NCBI GenBank assembly: GCA_965242865.1
Contig: CBDETK010000013.1
Span: forward strand, 1,824,001-1,888,000
Direction: 5' to 3'
DNA: 64,000 bases
DNA from: Candidatus Latescibacterota bacterium
GTDB lineage: Bacteria; Latescibacterota; UBA2968; UBA8231
The translations under genes and the position numbers were made by a program. Each line of letters starts with the position of its first letter. Within the stretch, counting starts at the first letter, position 1. This document shows, in pieces, positions 23,222-30,976 of this stretch. The notes beneath the pieces were generated by a model, which was given only the letters and a program-made list of their open reading frames with translations, was not told the DNA's origin and searched no databases.

Positions 23222-25195
23222 ATGGTTGTTTTTAATAAACTTATGAGGGGGGGGGAATCCACCCTTCTTATCGCCTTCCTCGCCATCTTGGGCACCACCC
23301 ACATCCTCGTCCGCACTGCCTCCTACGGCACCGCGATCACCACGGATTCCACAGTTTTCCTATCCACAGCCCTGAACTTCCTCGCGGGACAGGGCTGGCG
23401 AGATTTCGCGGGCAACCCATCGGTAGAATGGCCGCCCTTGTTCCCCCTGTTGCTGGTGGCCTTCGGCTGGGTCGGCATCGATCCGCTGGCGGCGGGTCGG
23501 TATATCAACGCCACCGCCTTCGGACTGATCATCTTCGCCGCGGGGTGCTGGCTGCGCTCGAATCTCCGGTCGCGGTGGCTGGTGCTAGCCGCCACCGCGA
23601 CCATTGCGACCTCCCTGTCCTTGAGCGATTGGGCATCCAACTTTAGAACCGACATCCTCTTCTACCTGTTTACGCTCCTCGCCTTAATTCAATTGGCGGC
23701 CGTCCTCAAGTGGCGGACAGACGCACCCCTGTGGTGGGCGGCGGTTTTCACTGCGCTAGCCGCGCTGACCCGCTATCCGGGCGTGGTCCTGATCGGCGTC
23801 GGCGTCCTGCTGCTGCTGGTGCGCCGCACCCCGCCGCTGGCGGTCCGGTTGAAGCACGCTGTCGTATTTGGTGCGGTCTCTTCCTTTCCCCTCGCGTTGG
23901 TGCTGATGTACAACTGGGCGGTCTCTGGGCACCTGACTGGGCCGCGTAGAAACGCGTCTGGGCAATCCCTATCCGATGGGCTGAGCCAGACCGTCAACAT
24001 ATTCCGCGAGTGGGTCGTCCCTCCAAACGCGCCGGACTGGTTGGGTTATCTCCTGTGGCTGGCTTTCGGGGCGGTCGGGCTAGCCGGCGCGGCGGTCGTC
24101 CTGCGCGGCGGCAGAGCACCCACAAGGGACGCTGCCGACCAGTCATCCTTCGGCGGCTGGTATGACCCAAAGGCCACGCCATCGCAGGTCCGCTTGGGGC
24201 CGGCTCTACTTTTCGGGGTGTTCGCCAAAATCTACATCGTATTGATGGTCGTCGTGCCATTATTCGCATTGCCTGTGGGCATCGAAAGCCGTTACTTGCT
24301 GCCCGTGTATGTGCCGTTGCTGTTGGCAGCGGCGTTCTTGCTGGATCGGTTCCTATCCAGCGAGGCGACGGGTCGGATGGCCGCCATCCGCTATGGGCTG
24401 GTGCCCCTCGTTCTGCTGGGTGCCCTCGCCCACATCGGCTTCTCGGCGCGAGAAAACCTCCATTATACCGCCCAAGCACAGGTAGCCGGATACCCCGCCC
24501 AAGCGTACAACGCCGCTCGTTGGCAGCATTCCGAGACCATGAATTACATCCGGGACCACCGCATGAAGGGCAAGATTTACAGCAACGCCGCCCCTCTTGC
24601 TTGGTTTGCGAGTCGGATCGCCGCCCCGGGTAAGTACGCAGGTCTCCCGACATGGTTCAAAGCCGGTACACATATCGTTTGGTTCCGGGAGTCCCCACTC
24701 GAGTTCCATTACGGCCCCCACCTCATAGACTTCCACCTCCTGCCCGGCGTGGAACCTGTGGCCGAACTGGCCGATGGCGTTGTATTCCGCGTAACGGCGG
24801 CCGGAGCCTTCGATCCAAAAAGTCGTCGCGCCCGGAAACAACGCTACGTGCAGGGACTCATCGAACGGAGCGGCGAGCAGGTGATCCGCGCCGACTGGGA
24901 CGTGTACCGCAACGGACGCAAGCTGACGTACCGCAAAAAGCCGTGTGCCCCCGCCGACGTGCTGACGAGTTTCGTTTTGCAAGTCAGCCCCATCGATCCG
25001 GCCGGCCGCCAGCCGCACGACTTTGATAACTTCGACTTCTATTTCTTCAGACAGGCGGGCGTATGGCTCGACGACCAGTGTGTCGTGACCGCCCAACTAC
25101 CCGGCTACGCCATCGACCGCATTCGGGTCGGCCAGTGGAGTTCCAACGGGAACCGCACCCTCTGGGACGCGGAGTTTTCGCCGGCCGGTGGGTGA
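23222..25195 (+). CDS. GT-C/ArnT-like polytopic membrane glycosyltransferase with C-terminal soluble domain
   Basis: DSTVF, WPPLFPLLL, LTRYPG and RYLLPVY motifs; about 11-12 hydrophobic segments. Confidence 0.75.
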   Translation: MVVFNKLMRGGESTLLIAFLAILGTTHILVRTASYGTAITTDSTVFLSTALNFLAGQGWRDFAGNPSVEWPPLFPLLLVAFGWVGIDPLAAGRYINATAFGLIIFAAGCWLRSNLRSRWLVLAATATIATSLSLSDWASNFRTDILFYLFTLLALIQLAAVLKWRTDAPLWWAAVFTALAALTRYPGVVLIGVGVLLLLVRRTPPLAVRLKHAVVFGAVSSFPLALVLMYNWAVSGHLTGPRRNASGQSLSDGLSQTVNIFREWVVPPNAPDWLGYLLWLAFGAVGLAGAAVVLRGGRAPTRDAADQSSFGGWYDPKATPSQVRLGPALLFGVFAKIYIVLMVVVPLFALPVGIESRYLLPVYVPLLLAAAFLLDRFLSSEATGRMAAIRYGLVPLVLLGALAHIGFSARENLHYTAQAQVAGYPAQAYNAARWQHSETMNYIRDHRMKGKIYSNAAPLAWFASRIAAPGKYAGLPTWFKAGTHIVWFRESPLEFHYGPHLIDFHLLPGVEPVAELADGVVFRVTAAGAFDPKSRRARKQRYVQGLIERSGEQVIRADWDVYRNGRKLTYRKKPCAPADVLTSFVLQVSPIDPAGRQPHDFDNFDFYFFRQAGVWLDDQCVVTAQLPGYAIDRIRVGQWSSNGNRTLWDAEFSPAGG

Positions 25196-25207
25196 GGACG
25201 CCCCATC

Positions 25208-25807
25208 TTGCCGCCTCGTCTCGTCGGCTTGGCCGGACCGTCCGGCGCCGGTAAAACCACGCTGGCCCGTGCGCTCCAGACCCACCTGCCCGGCCCGACC
25301 ACCGTGCTTTCCCTCGATGCGTACTACCGCGACTTGGCCGCCCTGTCCGCAGCCGCAAGAACCCGCGTCAATTTCGACGCCCCCGACGCCATAGATCACC
25401 CACGCCTCGCCGCTGACCTGCGCCAACTCGCGGCTGGCCACCGCGTCGAAATCCCGGTGTACGACTTTGCCACCCACACGCGCCAAGCGCACCAGCAGAG
25501 CCTCGCCCCGGCCGACTTCCTGATCGTCGAGGGCCTCTTCGCGCTCTATTGGCCCGCCATCAACACCCTCTACCACCTGCGCCTCTTCGTCGCAGCCGCC
25601 GACGCGCTCTGCTTGGAACGCCGCCTCGCCCGCGACCGCATGGAGCGCGGCCGTTCCGCCGCCTCGGTCCGCGCCCAGTACCAAGAACAGGTCCGCCCCA
25701 TGTACCGCCGCCACATCCAACCCACCGCCCGCCACGCCGACCTAATCCTCGACGGCAGCACCCCCATCGAAAAACAGGTCGCCGCCACCCTAGACGCCCT
25801 GTGGTAG
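25208..25807 (+). CDS. udk: Uridine kinase
   Basis: GLAGPSGAGKTT, DAYYRD, NFDAPDA, PVYDFATHTR, IVEG, RRLARD..ERGR. Confidence 0.92.
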   Translation: MPPRLVGLAGPSGAGKTTLARALQTHLPGPTTVLSLDAYYRDLAALSAAARTRVNFDAPDAIDHPRLAADLRQLAAGHRVEIPVYDFATHTRQAHQQSLAPADFLIVEGLFALYWPAINTLYHLRLFVAAADALCLERRLARDRMERGRSAASVRAQYQEQVRPMYRRHIQPTARHADLILDGSTPIEKQVAATLDALW

Positions 25808-25830
25808 GGACAACCCTCGTGGTTGTCCCT
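25804..25830 (+). repeat. GTAG-type REP-like palindrome (left flank of cassette)
   Basis: GTA-GGGACAACC-CTCGT-GGTTGTCCC; a perfect 9-bp stem overlapping the udk stop. Confidence 0.8.
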
Positions 25831-25946
25831 AGAAGCGGTCTGCTCCGCAAACCACCTTGGGGCATGTTGAACAAGCTCTGAGGATTGCCGTAGAAGTAAG
25901 CAGGTTGCGGCTTCTGTGTTTGGGCTTTTTATTAAAGAACCTACAA

Positions 25947-26050
25947 TCAGGGCCGGCCCCCCGTGCCTGCCCGTTAGAATCCCGTTGGGGCAGGCCCCCG
26001 TGCCTGCCCGTTAGAATCCCGTTGGGGCAGGCCCCCGTGCCTGCCCGTTA
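25947..26050 (+). repeat. About 2.8 tandem copies of a 37-bp palindromic REP-like unit
   Basis: Unit gttggggcaggcccccgtgcctgcccgttagaatccc (stem GGGCAGGC/GCCTGCCC) at 25984 and 26021, with a 5'-degenerate copy before. Confidence 0.9.
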
Positions 26051-26174
26051 CAGCGGCCCATTTGGGGTTAGCAAATGAACGAGACGATGGTTAAGCATTT
26101 CACATCAGGCAGGGGCCTTGCTGTGGGGCAAAACCCTGTTGGATGCTTGGAATCATCGTCGGATTTAATGTGTC

Positions 26175-26201
26175 GTAAGTCGTTGAAAAACAACAACTTA
26201 C
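26175..26201. promoter_or_regulatory. Dyad site with 11-bp arms and 5-bp spacer (recombinase- or repressor-type)
   Basis: GTAAGTCGTTG-AAAAA-CAACAACTTAC, one mismatch between arms. Confidence 0.55.
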
Positions 26202-26564
26202 CCTCCCCCCCCGAAAATTCTCCGCTAGCACCAAGCACTAAACTCTCTACTTCTCTGCATAGGCCGACGGCTCGTGTGCGGCTGTTGGGCGTCGCGTCGG
26301 TCTGCCCGCGTGGCCCCAAGCGCACGCTACCGTGCGGCCTTTGTGCTGATCCCCGTTTACTGCACCACCCCCGCAATCAGTCTGCCAAGGACCGAGAGCG
26401 GAATCTCTTCGACCCAGACACCGCGAGAACACTAGCAAAGGCGCACCCACAGCAAGGGGCGCGTCCTGAGCACTCCAAGTTAGCCCTAGGGCTAGCTCTG
26501 CCTCTTTCGGGGCGTCATGCCCCTCTTCCAATCTCCACACCATATCCACACAAAGGAGCAAAAA

Positions 26565-28235
26565 ATGCTTTCGTTGAAATCTCTCAAAACCCTGTTTGCG
26601 TTCGTCCTTTTGGGCATCGTCAGCACTTGGATGGGCTGCTCGGACTCCGCGCCGGTGGCCTCTCGGCCGGCGGGCAAAGCCACCTGTTCCTTGTGCGAGT
26701 TCTTGGGCGACGACGCCTACACCGCTACCGACGGACTGGCCGCCCGGGAAAGCCCCGACACCACCCAGACCGAAGCCGAAGCCGAGACCGACAGCACCCA
26801 GACCGCTGACGCCGATAGCACCCAAGCGACCACCGTGGAGTTCGCCGACGCCAATCTAGAGCGGGCGGTGCGGGAAGCGTTGGATCGCCCGCAAGGGCCG
26901 CTGACCCCGGCAGACTTGGCCGCCCTGACCGAACTTGACGCGAGCTATAAAAACATTGAGAGCGTGGCCGGCCTCGAACACGCCACGGCCCTGACAACGT
27001 TGTATCTGCGAGGCAACGCGATTACCGATGTGCAGCCGTTGGCCAGTCTGACCAATCTTCAAACGTTGTCGCTGTGGGGCAACAAGGTGGCGGATGCGAG
27101 TCCGCTGGCCAGCCTGATCAGCTTGCGCAAGCTGGATATGTGGGGCAACGAAATTACGGATGTACAGCCGTTCGCGGGCCTAACCAATCTGCAATTTCTC
27201 AATCTAGGGGACAACGACATTGCGGACGTGAGTCCCTTGGCCAGCCTGACCAACCTGAAATGGCTGGGCGTGATGGAAAACGGCCTTAGCCAGCACGCGG
27301 CCAACCAACAACTCGCCGCCGCGATAACAAGCGGCCTCCGCGTCGAAGCGGTAATAGAAAAATACCCCCGCGTCGAAACCGTCCAAGTCTATCCAGAAGA
27401 ACCGGAACCAGAGGAACCGGAACCAGTGCCCGTCATATACTGGACAGACTATACCACGTATAAGATTCAGCGGGCCGATTCGGATGGCGTAAACTCAAAC
27501 GTCCAAGACGTCGTCACAGGATTGGGTAATCCAGACGGCATCGCGCTGGACTTGGCGGGCAGAAAGATATACTGGACAGCCTATGGCGCGGATAAGATTC
27601 AGCGGGCCGATATGGATGGCGTAAACGAAAACGTCCAAGACGTCGTCACAGGATTGACGACCCCATTGGGCCTTGCGCTGGACTTGGTGGGCAGAAAGAT
27701 ATACTGGATAGACGATGGCACGGATAAGATTCAGCGGGCCGATATGGATGGCGTAAACGAAAACATCCAAGACGTCGTTACAACAGGATTGTCGTCCCCA
27801 TATGGCATCGCGCTGGACTTGACGAACAGAAAGATATACTGGACAGACTATGGCGCGGGCGTGAATAAGATTCAGCGGGCCGATATGGATGGCGTAAACG
27901 AAAACATCCAAGACGTCGTTACAGGATTGTTGTACCCATATGGCATCGCGCTGGACTTGGCGAACAGAAAGATGTACTGGACAGACTGGGGCACGGGCGC
28001 GGATAAGATTCAGCGGGCCGATATGGATGGCGTAAACGAAAACGTCCAAGACGTCGTCACAGGATTGGGTAATCCATTGGGCCTTGCGCTGGACTTGGCG
28101 AACAGAAAGATGTACTGGCCAGACAATACCACGGATAAGATTCAGCGGGCCGATATGGATGGCTTAAACGAAAACGTCCAAGACGTCGTCACAGGATTGA
28201 CGACCCCATCGGGCATCGCGCTGAGTATTCGGTAG
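26565..28235 (+). CDS. Lipoprotein with internalin-type LRRs and a six-bladed YWTD (LDL-receptor class B-like) propeller
   Basis: AAGGAG RBS; MLSLKSLK...WMGC lipobox; FADANLERAVR cap; 22-aa LTNLQTLSLWGNKVADASPLAS-type repeats; PEEPEPEEPEP linker; six (I/M)YWxx...KIQRADxDG repeats. Confidence 0.9.
   Translation: MLSLKSLKTLFAFVLLGIVSTWMGCSDSAPVASRPAGKATCSLCEFLGDDAYTATDGLAARESPDTTQTEAEAETDSTQTADADSTQATTVEFADANLERAVREALDRPQGPLTPADLAALTELDASYKNIESVAGLEHATALTTLYLRGNAITDVQPLASLTNLQTLSLWGNKVADASPLASLISLRKLDMWGNEITDVQPFAGLTNLQFLNLGDNDIADVSPLASLTNLKWLGVMENGLSQHAANQQLAAAITSGLRVEAVIEKYPRVETVQVYPEEPEPEEPEPVPVIYWTDYTTYKIQRADSDGVNSNVQDVVTGLGNPDGIALDLAGRKIYWTAYGADKIQRADMDGVNENVQDVVTGLTTPLGLALDLVGRKIYWIDDGTDKIQRADMDGVNENIQDVVTTGLSSPYGIALDLTNRKIYWTDYGAGVNKIQRADMDGVNENIQDVVTGLLYPYGIALDLANRKMYWTDWGTGADKIQRADMDGVNENVQDVVTGLGNPLGLALDLANRKMYWPDNTTDKIQRADMDGLNENVQDVVTGLTTPSGIALSIR
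27435..28232 (+). repeat. Six near-identical intragenic tandem repeats of roughly 130 bp
   Basis: The core ataagattcagcgggccgat...gatggc.taaac...aac.tccaagacgtcgt recurs six times. Confidence 0.95.
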
Positions 28236-28366
28236 TCGTAGAGGTTCACCTGCCCGGCTTGAATGGGTCGAGGCGCTGGGCTAAGGCCGAGCGGGAAGGA
28301 CGGCGACCGCCTCTACGGCTTGTTCAAAACGACCCAAGATAGGATTTGCGGAGCAGACCGCTTCTT

Positions 28367-28386
28367 ACAACCCTCGTGGTTGCCCT
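28367..28386 (+). repeat. Right-flank copy of the REP-derived direct repeat
   Basis: acaaccctcgtggttgccct versus acaaccctcgtggttgtccct at 25810-25830 (1-nt indel); lacks the GTAGGG head. Confidence 0.85.
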
Positions 28387-28419
28387 TATCTGCGTCCCGC
28401 CCCACGCTCCAATGGCATC

Positions 28420-30357
28420 CTAAAACGGCCCGGCGTGGTGCGAAGGCTCGTTGACGTAGCGTTGGGTCTCTAGGTCGAGGGTGATTTCGCAATGAGGCGG
28501 CAAGGCGATGCTCAGGTGCTTGCCGTTGACGGCCACTTGACGCTCTTCGGTCGCCAAGGGCACCGCCGCGTACGTACCGGCATAGCCGCCCAGCCAGCCC
28601 GGGTACTCGCTGGTGCGGCTGTGGTACGCGGCCCGGCCAAAGCGGTGCTCGCCAAAGGCGCCGCCCTGAATGACCAGTTCCCTGCTCTCGTTGGGGTTCA
28701 AATTGACCAAGCGCACGACCGTGCGGTTCGCTTCGAGCGTTTCCACCAAGGCCCCTACGTCGGCGGGCAGGCCGGGGCGGCCGCGCTGGGCGTCAAAGTA
28801 GCGCAGGCGGGTGTGCAGCAGGCCGCCGTTGTAGATGGGTTGTGGGCCGCCCAGCGTGAGTTGGATGAGCGCTTCGGACGAGACGGGATTGCCCCATTGC
28901 CAGTGGTGGACGTGATGGCGAGTGCCCACGTCTTGATCGGCGCGCAGTTGGGCCAAGCGGCGGCCGGCCACTTGGTACGTGGCCTGCAACATTTGCTCTG
29001 GATAGGTCGGGTTGGCGCCGGCCAAAAAGCGCACCCAAGGGGCCTCGTGGCCCGAGTCCTCTTTGTTGTGGAAGGGGAACACGGCCGCCCAGTCGAACGC
29101 TTCCTTTTGCCGAATGGCCTCCACGCGCTCCCAATCGGCCTCGTCCATGGACAAATTCCACAGGGTCACCGGGTACACCGGACTCATGGGCTGCCAGTCG
29201 AACCAGCCGGCGTCGCCGTAGCGGTAGGGCACCAGCAAGGTTTCGCGCTGCTCGCCCATGGCGGCAAATTGGCTCGCCCAGCGCTCGGCCACGCTCATGT
29301 ACTGATCGCGAATATCCTCCATGCGCCCTTGTTCCAAAATGCGGTCCATCTGCTGGCGCGGCAGGTCGAGATAGGCGCGGTCGCGGGTCAACAAGTAGGC
29401 GTTGGCCGCGGCGTCGAGGGTGGCCTTCTGCAACGTCAAAAAGCCGTGCGGAAAGGTCCAGCCGTAGCGGCCCCCGTACCAATTTCCAGCGCAGTATTCG
29501 CCCACTTGGCCGGACAAGCCGACGTTGTCGGGCAACAGGCCGCCGTTGGCGCGGGCGCGCTCCACCCAAGCGTCCGTGTATTCCACGACCCAAGCGCGGT
29601 ATTTTTCGTCGCCCGTGATCAGGAAGGCATTGGTCGCCAGCGAGGTGACGGCCAAGTTGGTCGGGGTGTCGCCCTGACGCCAGCGGTCGAACAGGGTTTG
29701 CCCCATCAGCCGAGCTTTGGCCGGGTCGGCCAAGTCCTGCACACAGGTGATGCCGGGCAAGTCAAAAAAGGGCAGGTCGTACACTTCCATGCTGCCGCCC
29801 AAGGGGTTGTAGCTTTGTCGGTCGCGCTCGGCGAGTGGGGCGAAGTAGGGGCCGTGGCTGCCGTTGAGGCCCGAGCGCAGGATTTTGTGCTCGGGGTCGT
29901 AGTTTTGCGCGTCCGGGTCTTCGTTGAGGTAAAAGCCGGCAAAGCGACAGGCCCGTTCGACGCGCCGCGGGGCATTGGGGTGGGCTAGGCACAAGTGATA
30001 AAAGCAGACGTCGCTTTCGGCTTGGTGCATCTGGTCTTCGCGGATGCCGTATTCCTTGCTGACCGTGCCCAAGCGGGTCAGTTGGCGGGTGATGGCCTCC
30101 CACTGGCGGTCGGCCAAGTGCAACAGGTGCTCGCCGCCGCCCATCAGATAAACGAGCGGCCAATTAAAAAAAGGCTCGTAGAAATCGTCGGGGCTGCCGC
30201 CGCCCCACTCGTCCTGCCAGATGAATTCGCCATCCTCGCGGGTGAAGTGGTCGAGGAAGGGCTGCACCGATTGGTCGAGGGCGTCGAACAGGCGACGCTG
30301 CCACACGGCCCAGTGGGCCGGTTCGTTGAGCGGGATATTGGCGGTCAGGCGTTGCAT
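28420..30357 (-). CDS. Conserved hypothetical protein, possibly (alpha/alpha)-toroid glycosidase/lyase-like
   Basis: Likely start MQRLTAN at 30357 with AGGAG RBS; W/Y/D-rich motifs DDFYE, NGGLLPDNVG, WYGG..GW. The fold is a guess. Confidence 0.7.
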   Translation of the reverse strand: MQRLTANIPLNEPAHWAVWQRRLFDALDQSVQPFLDHFTREDGEFIWQDEWGGGSPDDFYEPFFNWPLVYLMGGGEHLLHLADRQWEAITRQLTRLGTVSKEYGIREDQMHQAESDVCFYHLCLAHPNAPRRVERACRFAGFYLNEDPDAQNYDPEHKILRSGLNGSHGPYFAPLAERDRQSYNPLGGSMEVYDLPFFDLPGITCVQDLADPAKARLMGQTLFDRWRQGDTPTNLAVTSLATNAFLITGDEKYRAWVVEYTDAWVERARANGGLLPDNVGLSGQVGEYCAGNWYGGRYGWTFPHGFLTLQKATLDAAANAYLLTRDRAYLDLPRQQMDRILEQGRMEDIRDQYMSVAERWASQFAAMGEQRETLLVPYRYGDAGWFDWQPMSPVYPVTLWNLSMDEADWERVEAIRQKEAFDWAAVFPFHNKEDSGHEAPWVRFLAGANPTYPEQMLQATYQVAGRRLAQLRADQDVGTRHHVHHWQWGNPVSSEALIQLTLGGPQPIYNGGLLHTRLRYFDAQRGRPGLPADVGALVETLEANRTVVRLVNLNPNESRELVIQGGAFGEHRFGRAAYHSRTSEYPGWLGGYAGTYAAVPLATEERQVAVNGKHLSIALPPHCEITLDLETQRYVNEPSHHAGPF

Positions 30358-30526
30358 GGGGACTCCTGCGAGGTTTCGGGGGCGTTGGCCGAGGCTTACG
30401 CGGATGAGTTTAGTGGGAGAAAGCGCCGGTGTAAAGCCGCTTGACAGCGCGGGACGAAGCGGGCTTATTGCGCTAGGCCAGCGTCCCACCCCGTGGAAAT
30501 TGGGATATTGAGAAGAGGGTAGCACC

Positions 30527-30976
30527 ATGCGCTGCATCGCGGAAATCGCTCTGTGGGGCGCGGTTCTGTTGGAGGCGGCCGGTTGCACACCCGCCCTGCC
30601 TCCAGAGCCGTTGCGCATCCAAATCACCGGGGAAGAGTACACTTGGCAATTTCGCTACCCCGGCCCCGACGGCGCATTGCAGACCGACGACGATGTAATC
30701 AAGCCGGGCAAGGAATTGCACCTGCCGCTCGACCTAGCGATTGAACTCGAACTGACCAGTCGAGATTACATCTACACCTTCGCCCTGCCCCATCTCAACT
30801 TACATCAGGTGGCCGTGCCCGATTTGACCTTTGCGCTGGCCTTTACCCCGCGAGAAGCGGGCGCATTCTCCTTTGTCGGCGACCAAATGTGCGGCTTTGA
30901 ACACGAGTCGCTCAACGGCCGCGTGGTGATCGAGCCGCCAGCAGCTTTTGTCGATTGGCTGGCCGGGCCGCGATAG
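30527..30976 (+). CDS. Stand-alone cytochrome c oxidase subunit II-like cupredoxin-domain protein
   Basis: AAGC lipobox-like signal; ITGEEYTWQFRYPG, ELHLP, LTSRD, MCGFEH. Confidence 0.75.
   Translation: MRCIAEIALWGAVLLEAAGCTPALPPEPLRIQITGEEYTWQFRYPGPDGALQTDDDVIKPGKELHLPLDLAIELELTSRDYIYTFALPHLNLHQVAVPDLTFALAFTPREAGAFSFVGDQMCGFEHESLNGRVVIEPPAAFVDWLAGPR

Follow-up and report, generated by a model that had tools for sequence, protein, structure and literature searches.

A probable IS5-type mobile insertion cassette with a predicted surface lipoprotein gene, one of a family at about 30 loci in a Latescibacterota genome

A window of 64,000 nucleotides from the genome of a Candidatus Latescibacterota bacterium (GenBank assembly GCA_965242865.1, here G000; contig CBDETK010000013.1, positions 1,824,001 to 1,888,000) holds, behind the gene udk, a unit of 2,533 bp that is bounded by inverted repeats (IRs), lacks a transposase and carries one gene for a predicted lipoprotein with leucine-rich repeats (LRRs) and YWTD repeats. 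This unit (window 25832-28364; C13:1849832-1852364) is probably a mobile insertion cassette (MIC), that is, a non-autonomous derivative of an insertion sequence (IS) of the IS5 family with a single passenger gene. The observations behind this assignment are termini common to the unit, an IS and short solo elements, the absence of a transposase from the cassette, its dispersal in multiple copies, its precise absence from relatives, and 3-bp duplications at other copies. According to the available text of PMC6199540, MICs have two IS-type IRs, no transposase and one or more passenger coding sequences (CDSs), measure 0.7-3 kb, and depend on a cognate IS acting in trans. As the unit has two IRs, no transposase, a CDS and a length within this range, it fits that description. 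An earlier sequence-only reading of this DNA had not recognized a described element here; the element does belong to a described class, in which its copy number (about 30 loci) and its cargo are unusual.

Termini, copies and related insertion sequences

The ends of the element were set at G25832 and C28364, one base inside those proposed by the sequence-only reading. The inverted termini reported in that reading are present: the outer arms (25831-25851 and 28345-28365) are complementary at 21/21 positions and the inner arms (25856-25876 and 28318-28338) at 18/21, an identical 10-mer included, and the outer-arm 21-mer occurs twice in the window (0 expected from shuffles). Contigs of the public run X1 match both junctions without differences (window 25154-25910 and 28309-29400); for public runs only assembled contigs were usable, and run X1 may be the sample behind the genome assembly. 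Genome-wide profile searches for IS5 transposases (NF033580), IS1182 transposases (NF033551) and Cas1 (PF01867) gave no match within C13:1849832-1852364, and the sole long open reading frame (ORF) of the cassette with family matches is the LRR/YWTD gene, whose 556-aa product matches the Pfam families LRR_4 (2.6e-39) and Ldl_recept_b (2.3e-35). These results support the earlier proposal of a non-autonomous, transposase-free element that is bounded by terminal inverted repeats and has a surface repeat-protein gene as its only cargo. In the interval 25700-28500 of the window, Rfam gave no match at E <= 1, a scan for the sigma-70 consensus returned 0 promoter-like sites, and terminator-like matches were not in excess (4 versus 3.2 in shuffles).

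Copies of the unit were identified by a BLAST search of the whole genome (5,997,474 bases, 13 contigs) with the 2,535-bp unit as the query, which yielded 68 clusters. If a cluster held the conserved leader and/or the family gene at 76-92% identity, it was counted as a family locus (31 clusters). If it was a short solo repeat, or a distant LRR/YWTD paralogue (64-80% identity, no family leader), it was left out (37 clusters). Intact ORFs of 474-654 aa starting at a conserved AAAGGAGCAAAAAATG were found at 25/31 family loci, and the genes at the other six are fragmentary. Every gene-carrying copy holds the same lipoprotein gene family, contrary to the expectation that different cargos would be found between paired termini. 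The sequence-only reading had also named a solo dispersed repeat as the finding that would speak against an element, and this was borne out in part: among 28 nhmmer matches to the last ~75-130 nt of the unit, 14 are solo occurrences of the terminal ~75 nt, and 13 others are tails of family genes, the last being the left end in the window. One identical junction between the 3' untranslated region (3'UTR) and the tail is shared by 13 loci, which indicates that the gene acquired its tail a single time and that the two were copied together from then on; in 10 of these 13, homology ends at an intact terminus.

The 11-nt terminus GAAGCGGTCTG, preceded by TWA (TTA or TAA), is common to the gene-carrying units, a 931-bp IS, and solo elements that are taken to be miniature inverted-repeat transposable elements (MITEs) because both ends lie within 130-210 bp (e.g., C13:1475721-1475856). 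The first 11 nt of the cassette are identical to one end of the IS and one base off the other. Two mutually identical copies of this IS (C13:2853142-2854072 and 3345909-3346839) encode DUF4096 (PF13340; 1.2e-26) and DDE_Tnp_1 (PF01609; 2.3e-14), and the two ORFs of the IS span positions 2-124 and 138-258 of the 258-position NCBIfam IS5 model NF033580, with ORF1 scoring 116.2 bits (cut-off 110) and ORF2 84 bits on the second half of the model. The copy of the IS in the relative G023 has one frame of 292 codons. Five sister-subfamily transposase genes, each a single ORF above the family cut-off, are located on C13 (four) and contig C10 (one). The enzyme-encoding partner elsewhere in the genome that the earlier reading had called for is thus found in an IS5-family IS with the same 11-nt terminus, and not in the IS1182-like or Cas1 enzyme it had suggested: the best genome match to the IS1182-family transposase reached 62.8 bits against a curated cut-off of 270, and neither of the two Cas1 matches in the genome is near any terminus, one adjoining a 57-repeat array of clustered regularly interspaced short palindromic repeats (CRISPR) and the other being at C13:3526461. 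A search for a system of repetitive extragenic palindromes (REPs) and their associated tyrosine transposase (REP-RAYT) gave a single partial Y1_Tnp match in the genome.

In G000 the cassette-type 20-nt terminus is matched 17 times, and 30 relatives of the same genus yielded no match; two single matches were found in unrelated organisms (one genome each, 185,579 species), where by our own estimate about 1 is expected by chance. The IS is present in 21 of the 30 relatives at 65-84% identity. Homologues of the YWTD part in named relatives come mostly from Candidatus Latescibacterota, and also from Poribacteria, Gemmatimonadota and Spirochaetia metagenome-assembled genomes. Public runs labeled 'sponge metagenome' hold part of the window stretch, run X4 among them.

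Insertion sites and competing explanations

Matching flanking triplets were found for 12/18 terminus pairs of all elements together, compared with 29% expected by chance from the observed triplet frequencies. The triplets are identical at four of the five complete units (binomial estimate against 0.29, p about 0.03) and at one of the two full-length IS copies. Two empty sites resolved to the base show a 3-bp TAA duplication. At the copy 891246-893989, five relatives read ...TTCTAA^AGGCCGTCCC... where G000 has TAA-unit-TAA, and at the copy 1108734-1111263 the flanks are contiguous in G023 (...TTTTCCGAT-CTGA-CGGTACACGCC) and enclose the unit in G000 (...TTTTCGATT-TAA-unit-TAA-CGATACACGCC). Judged from these sites, the units appear to insert at TWA with a 3-bp duplication. 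A GTAG-type motif was present within 45 nt of only 4/84 termini, and the genome contains seven strict GTAGGG...CCCTAC hairpins. Hairpins are not a general target of the family. The long target duplication and the targeting of REP-like hairpins that the sequence-only reading had ascribed to the element are therefore not properties of the family, in which other copies have the 3-bp TAA duplication.

At the udk locus itself, a direct repeat ACAACCCTCGTGGTTG is located directly outside both ends (starts 25810 and 28367), with only two matches in the window versus 0.01 expected. Without gaps it measures 22 nt, of which 20 are identical (25810-25831 versus 28367-28388), and its left copy makes up the body of a hairpin with a stem of 11 bp, TAGGGACAACC-CTCGT-GGTTGTCCCTA, that overlaps the stop codon TAG (25805-25807) of udk (25208-25807; PRK family match, 5e-38), as had been described. 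The triplets adjacent to the termini are unequal at this copy (left CTA, right TTA). None of the 14 same-genus relatives examined has the cassette between udk and the next gene downstream; the gap between the two genes is 37-209 bp in six of these and holds unrelated genes in eight. The empty site with a single hairpin that the earlier reading had suggested looking for exists in the relatives G001 and G019, which have one GTAG hairpin and no cassette, indicating that the extra repeat is specific to the G000 lineage. In several relatives the hairpin is followed by ...CCC(T)TACAAC..., so that part of the 'repeat' (ACAACC after TTA) may be ancestral. Run X4 comes from another study; its contigs likewise end at the two termini, but their left repeat copy is shortened by 11 nt, with a left junction that can be read as either ...CCCCTTA or ...CCCTGGA. 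At C13:3591xxx a related hairpin is accompanied by a partial tandem copy in the absence of any element, and the 16-mer of the flanking repeat was found at this locus only, plus in a variant form at one other site. The ~21-bp duplication is a local peculiarity of this locus and not the signature of the element. The remaining repeat of ~12-19 bp either was a tandem duplication before the insertion or arose at or after it; that the insertion event itself made a true long duplication is possible but less likely than not. The long duplication and the palindrome targeting had made the element look new, and since both are local to one locus, what is left is an element of a known class.

Two further features of this locus were recorded. 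The udk gene in G000 has an extra codon (...CTG TGG TAG, window 25799-25807); contigs of runs X3 and X4 are without these 3 nt, and the relatives examined mostly read ...TTGTAG. The downstream gene (28420-30642, minus strand; 740 aa) has no Pfam match at E <= 0.001, and its 3' end region is 88-93% identical at the nucleotide level across the 14 relatives examined.

Most likely, the family dispersed by transposition, either cut-and-paste or copy-in, with T(T/A)A sites as targets and 3 bp duplicated at each. A DDE transposase acting in trans would have come from the 931-bp IS with the terminus GAAGCGGTCTG or from the intact sister subfamily, and the unit may still be mobile in this way. At the udk locus the cassette would have inserted at the base of the hairpin on its 3' side, and the additional ~19 bp of hairpin repeat would stem from an earlier tandem duplication or have arisen during or after the insertion.

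A number of observations weigh against a mobile cassette. Only five of the 31 family loci (units of 2442-2965 bp) hold both termini, and the left ends are heterogeneous and often abut other MITE fragments. The copies compared never exceed ~92% identity, so that there is no sign of recent movement. The window copy has the unequal flanks and the atypical 20/22 repeat described above, the copy at 891246 has 43 extra MITE-like nt after its right TAA, and the site in G019 that corresponds to the copy at 1921095 is not a clean empty site, as only its right side matches. In none of 25 relatives do the flanks of the copy 5563345-5566309 lie side by side, which means that its matching TAA may be due to chance. 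Compared with the G023 copy, the IS of G000 is one base short at GG-AAAAAAA-TCC, which splits the transposase frame at the A7 run, and a full-length transposase would need a -1 shift on A_AAA_AAA (restoring ...DAGKK-IQGRKR...). This split reflects either programmed frameshifting or decay.

A rival explanation is that the copies are an ordinary paralogous family that grew by segmental duplication and recombination, with independent MITEs flanking some members by chance. Solo MITEs with the same ends are common (half of the 28 tail-like matches), the left ends differ between copies and the MITE fragments occur in both orientations, one or both termini are missing at 26/31 loci, one of the complete copies (5563345) is at a synteny break, and the C-terminal domains are swapped in three copies, showing that recombination acts on the family. 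This explanation is nevertheless unlikely, given the one identical 3'UTR-tail junction at 13 loci, the three loci at which the sequence missing from relatives is exactly that between the termini, and the matching 3-nt flanks of four out of five complete units where the chance rate is 0.29.

Two other explanations start from the long flanking repeat. The sequence-only reading had proposed a new element that targets REP-like palindromes, makes a ~20-bp duplication and is moved by an IS1182-like or Cas1-type enzyme. The flanking repeat is indeed real and far beyond chance, and the empty sites of G001 and G019 do carry one hairpin; against this stand the 3-bp duplications at other copies, the scarcity of GTAG-type motifs near termini and of strict hairpins in the genome, an IS1182 score below cut-off, a Cas1 gene that belongs to a CRISPR locus, the shortened left repeat copy in run X4, and the tandem hairpin at C13:3591xxx that has no element. 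The proposal is already contradicted for the family as a whole, and we consider it very improbable. An insert that is located at a gene's 3' end and flanked by direct repeats of ~20 bp is a typical outcome of integrase-mediated insertion, and the 21-22-bp repeats could accordingly be the attL and attR cores left by a site-specific recombinase. Such repeats were found at no other copy, however, the 16-mer is confined to this locus and one variant site, and the ends of the unit are IS5-type IRs, all of which makes a recombinase exceedingly improbable. Thus, we favor a MIC derived from an IS5-family IS as the explanation of the unit.

Leader, cargo gene and a self-matching CRISPR spacer

The features of the cassette and its borders are collected in Table 1.

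Table 1. Features of the cassette at the udk locus and of its flanks (window coordinates)
Feature	Position	Strand	Remarks
Left terminal inverted repeat GAAGCGGTCTGCTCCGCAAACC...	25832-25876	+	Inverted copy of the 'right-type' arm; first 11 nt common to IS and MITE ends
Non-coding leader	25877-26564	+	Conserved among paralogues (copy alignment); ribosome-binding site AAGGAG at 26553-26558, near its end
Three tandem 37-bp hairpin units	25950-26060	+	1-4 units per copy
Putative promoter-type module: palindrome GTAAGTCGTTG-AAAAA-CAACAACTTAC, poly-C CCTCCCCCCCC (26202-26212), GAAAATTC	26175-26220	+	
Stretch matched antisense by CRISPR spacer 4	26489-26528	+	37/40 here
Cargo gene, 556 aa	26565-28235	+	Pfam, NCBIfam
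3' tail	28236-28364	+	Subterminal terminus-like repeat GGCGACCGCCTC followed by TAC (28302-28316); right terminal inverted repeat 28318-28364 ending ...CAGACCGCTTC
GTAG-type hairpin at udk stop, insertion site	25805-25831	.	Stem 25805-25815 / 25821-25831; left flanking-repeat copy 25810-25831
Right outer flank	28365-28388	.	TTA directly outside the terminus (28365-28367); right flanking-repeat copy ACAACCCTCGTGGTTGCCCTTA (28367-28388)

The module formed by the palindrome, the poly-C tract and GAAAATTC was found at 38 sites in G000, of which 27 are before family genes and 11 before other ORFs. The poly-C tract varies from 7 to 24 nt across the 27 family copies, and 25 of the 31 C/G runs of at least 12 nt in the genome fall in the module. 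The tract precedes the start codon by ~350 nt. The module was detected in 11/30 genus relatives as well, and one genome contains as many as 20 sites. It has the anatomy of a phase-variable promoter, and its layout suggests that it would drive expression of the gene behind it and that this expression may be phase variable; it is a candidate for a genus-wide switchable promoter. For the contigs of the public runs, no indel was listed at the window poly-C tract and no contig was reported to join across the whole cassette; as contigs cannot show rare variants, neither result counts as evidence. The 37 sites other than the one in the window include C13:319769, 1636400, 2391590 and 4675726 and C7:3201. 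Outside the family, the module is located 45-80 nt before most of the ORFs and about 250 nt before them in two cases. Five of the 11 non-family ORFs were scanned: two encode fn3-GSDH-cytochrome c proteins, one an immunoglobulin (Ig)-domain protein with a type IX secretion system (T9SS) tail and one an arylsulfotransferase-like protein, and one is without a Pfam match. The leader also contains a 37-bp hairpin unit (GGGCAGGC...GCCTGCCC), found as 29 units at 16 loci that all adjoin family copies. As no unit was detected away from family copies in the genome, the possibility that it is a genome-wide REP was rejected.

The cargo protein combines a putative signal peptide (lipobox-like ...WMGC) and a conserved N-terminal region with an LRR array, a Pro/Glu linker, and six YWTD repeats (low-density lipoprotein receptor class B), and its gene has internal repeats of 132-138 nt. 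Matches to the NCBIfam internalin-like LRR models were below cut-off. Based on the signal-peptide-like N-terminus ending in ...WMGC, the protein is predicted to be a lipoprotein. All copies open with a near-identical signal peptide that ends in Cys (...GIVxxWxGC), followed by a conserved N-terminal stretch. The median pairwise ratio of nonsynonymous to synonymous substitution rates (dN/dS), taken over 300 pairs for each part, reaches 0.24 in residues 1-90 and 0.23 in the LRR part. For the YWTD part it is 1.01, with 117/231 pairs above 1 and 48% amino-acid identity, values to be read with the caveat that the propeller blades may be misaligned. In three members (C13:101352-102905, 1077503-1079535 and 4359100-4360493) a second LRR array replaces the YWTD propeller, indicating that the family exchanges its C-terminal modules and keeps the leader, the signal peptide and the first LRR array constant. 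Related genes are present in the relative G007, which has a cluster of LRR genes (C2:229186-242768) with 66-73% identity to the cargo and, elsewhere, a leader-like stretch with the poly-C module adjoining an LRR gene (C2:2639278-2640243). These may represent the kind of ordinary gene from which the cassette cargo was captured.

The leader is also matched by the bacterium's own CRISPR array (C13:4796507-4800849), which has 57 repeats and 56 spacers and adjoins type III-A and III-D-like cas genes. Spacer 4 matches the leader at 40/40 positions in two copies (C13:1921832-1921871 and 1078832-1078871) and with 1-5 mismatches in 16 more, among them 37/40 in the window copy, and in every one of these 18 it runs antisense to the gene. 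The likely reading direction of the array was derived from the 3' end of the repeat, ATTGAAAC, together with the location of the cas genes. Should reading start at the cas-proximal end of the array, the CRISPR RNA (crRNA) would pair with the leader transcript, so that the family may be a target of type III CRISPR. At least 18 spacers of the array match the bacterium's own chromosome, most at 97-100%, and of the 15 self-targets in long open frames 11 are sense and four antisense. So many self-matching spacers in one array are unusual.

Comparison with known systems and significance

The closest described counterpart is MIC231 of IS231 in the Bacillus cereus group, which likewise has IS-type IRs, no transposase and a passenger CDS; the window element has one CDS in 2.5 kb and an IS with the same terminus in its genome. 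It differs from MIC231 in being derived from the IS5 family with a 3-bp TWA duplication and not from the IS4 family, and in belonging to a family at 31 loci of one genome, each copy of which carries the same diverging gene family and not unrelated passengers. IS5 subgroups and eukaryotic PIF/Harbinger elements make 3-bp TNA/TWA duplications. With IS5-type MITEs, such as the solo 130-210-bp elements of this genome, the cassette shares identical 11-nt termini, subterminal arms and TWA flanks, but it is about 20 times longer and coding. Casposons and IS1182 elements resemble it only in terminal inverted repeats and a possible long flanking repeat; no Cas1 or IS1182 transposase is linked to the cassette termini, and the duplication of the family is 3 bp. 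MICs derived from Tn3 carry transcription activator-like (TAL) effector genes in Xanthomonas, according to the available text of PMC4337579. As far as that text goes, these too place host-interaction repeat-protein genes on transposase-less cassettes with transposon ends, but they belong to another transposon family, are found in a plasmid-borne pathogen setting, and have a low copy number.

The multi-copy surface lipoprotein genes also resemble phase-variable families in that a long homopolymer tract, variable in length from copy to copy, stands before each gene. In Mycoplasma, the vlp genes are a phase-variable family of surface proteins with homopolymer tracts in their promoters. Phase-variable surface proteins with such promoter tracts have also been described in, for example, Bordetella pertussis (PMC1891110, available text). 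The present family, in which switching is putative, differs in that it has its tract ~350 nt upstream of the start and belongs to an uncultured sponge-associated bacterium.

These elements of the system can tentatively be combined. The family would then act as a mobile 'contingency gene', in which an IS5-derived vehicle scatters copies of a surface receptor with a switchable poly-C module and a fast-diverging YWTD propeller, giving a combinatorial surface towards the sponge host, while the type III spacer would restrain or regulate the family via the leader transcript. We give this full picture a small chance of being right.

Large sets of 'eukaryote-like' repeat proteins are a known trait of sponge symbionts, and the route by which these sets expand is poorly documented. 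Among the literature matches listed for eukaryotic-like proteins of sponge symbionts together with MITEs or inverted repeats, nothing relevant was found, which is not proof that the subject is unpublished. The word 'transposase' does not occur in the available text of PMC12993501, and its single mention in that of PMC3909097 concerns microcompartment gene clusters. In the bacterium studied here such an expansion can be traced to a concrete vehicle, a cassette of IS5 type that lacks a transposase, occupies 31 loci in one species and has a terminus type absent from 30 relatives in the genus. For genome annotation, this means that what looks like 'paralogous gene families' in genomes of this kind may consist of mobile cassettes. 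The antisense spacer beside type III genes offers a testable link between CRISPR and the control of a resident mobile gene family. If the poly-C module does switch expression and the propeller is under diversifying selection, the family would provide a mutualist with a mobile system for a variable surface, a type that has so far been tied mainly to pathogens.

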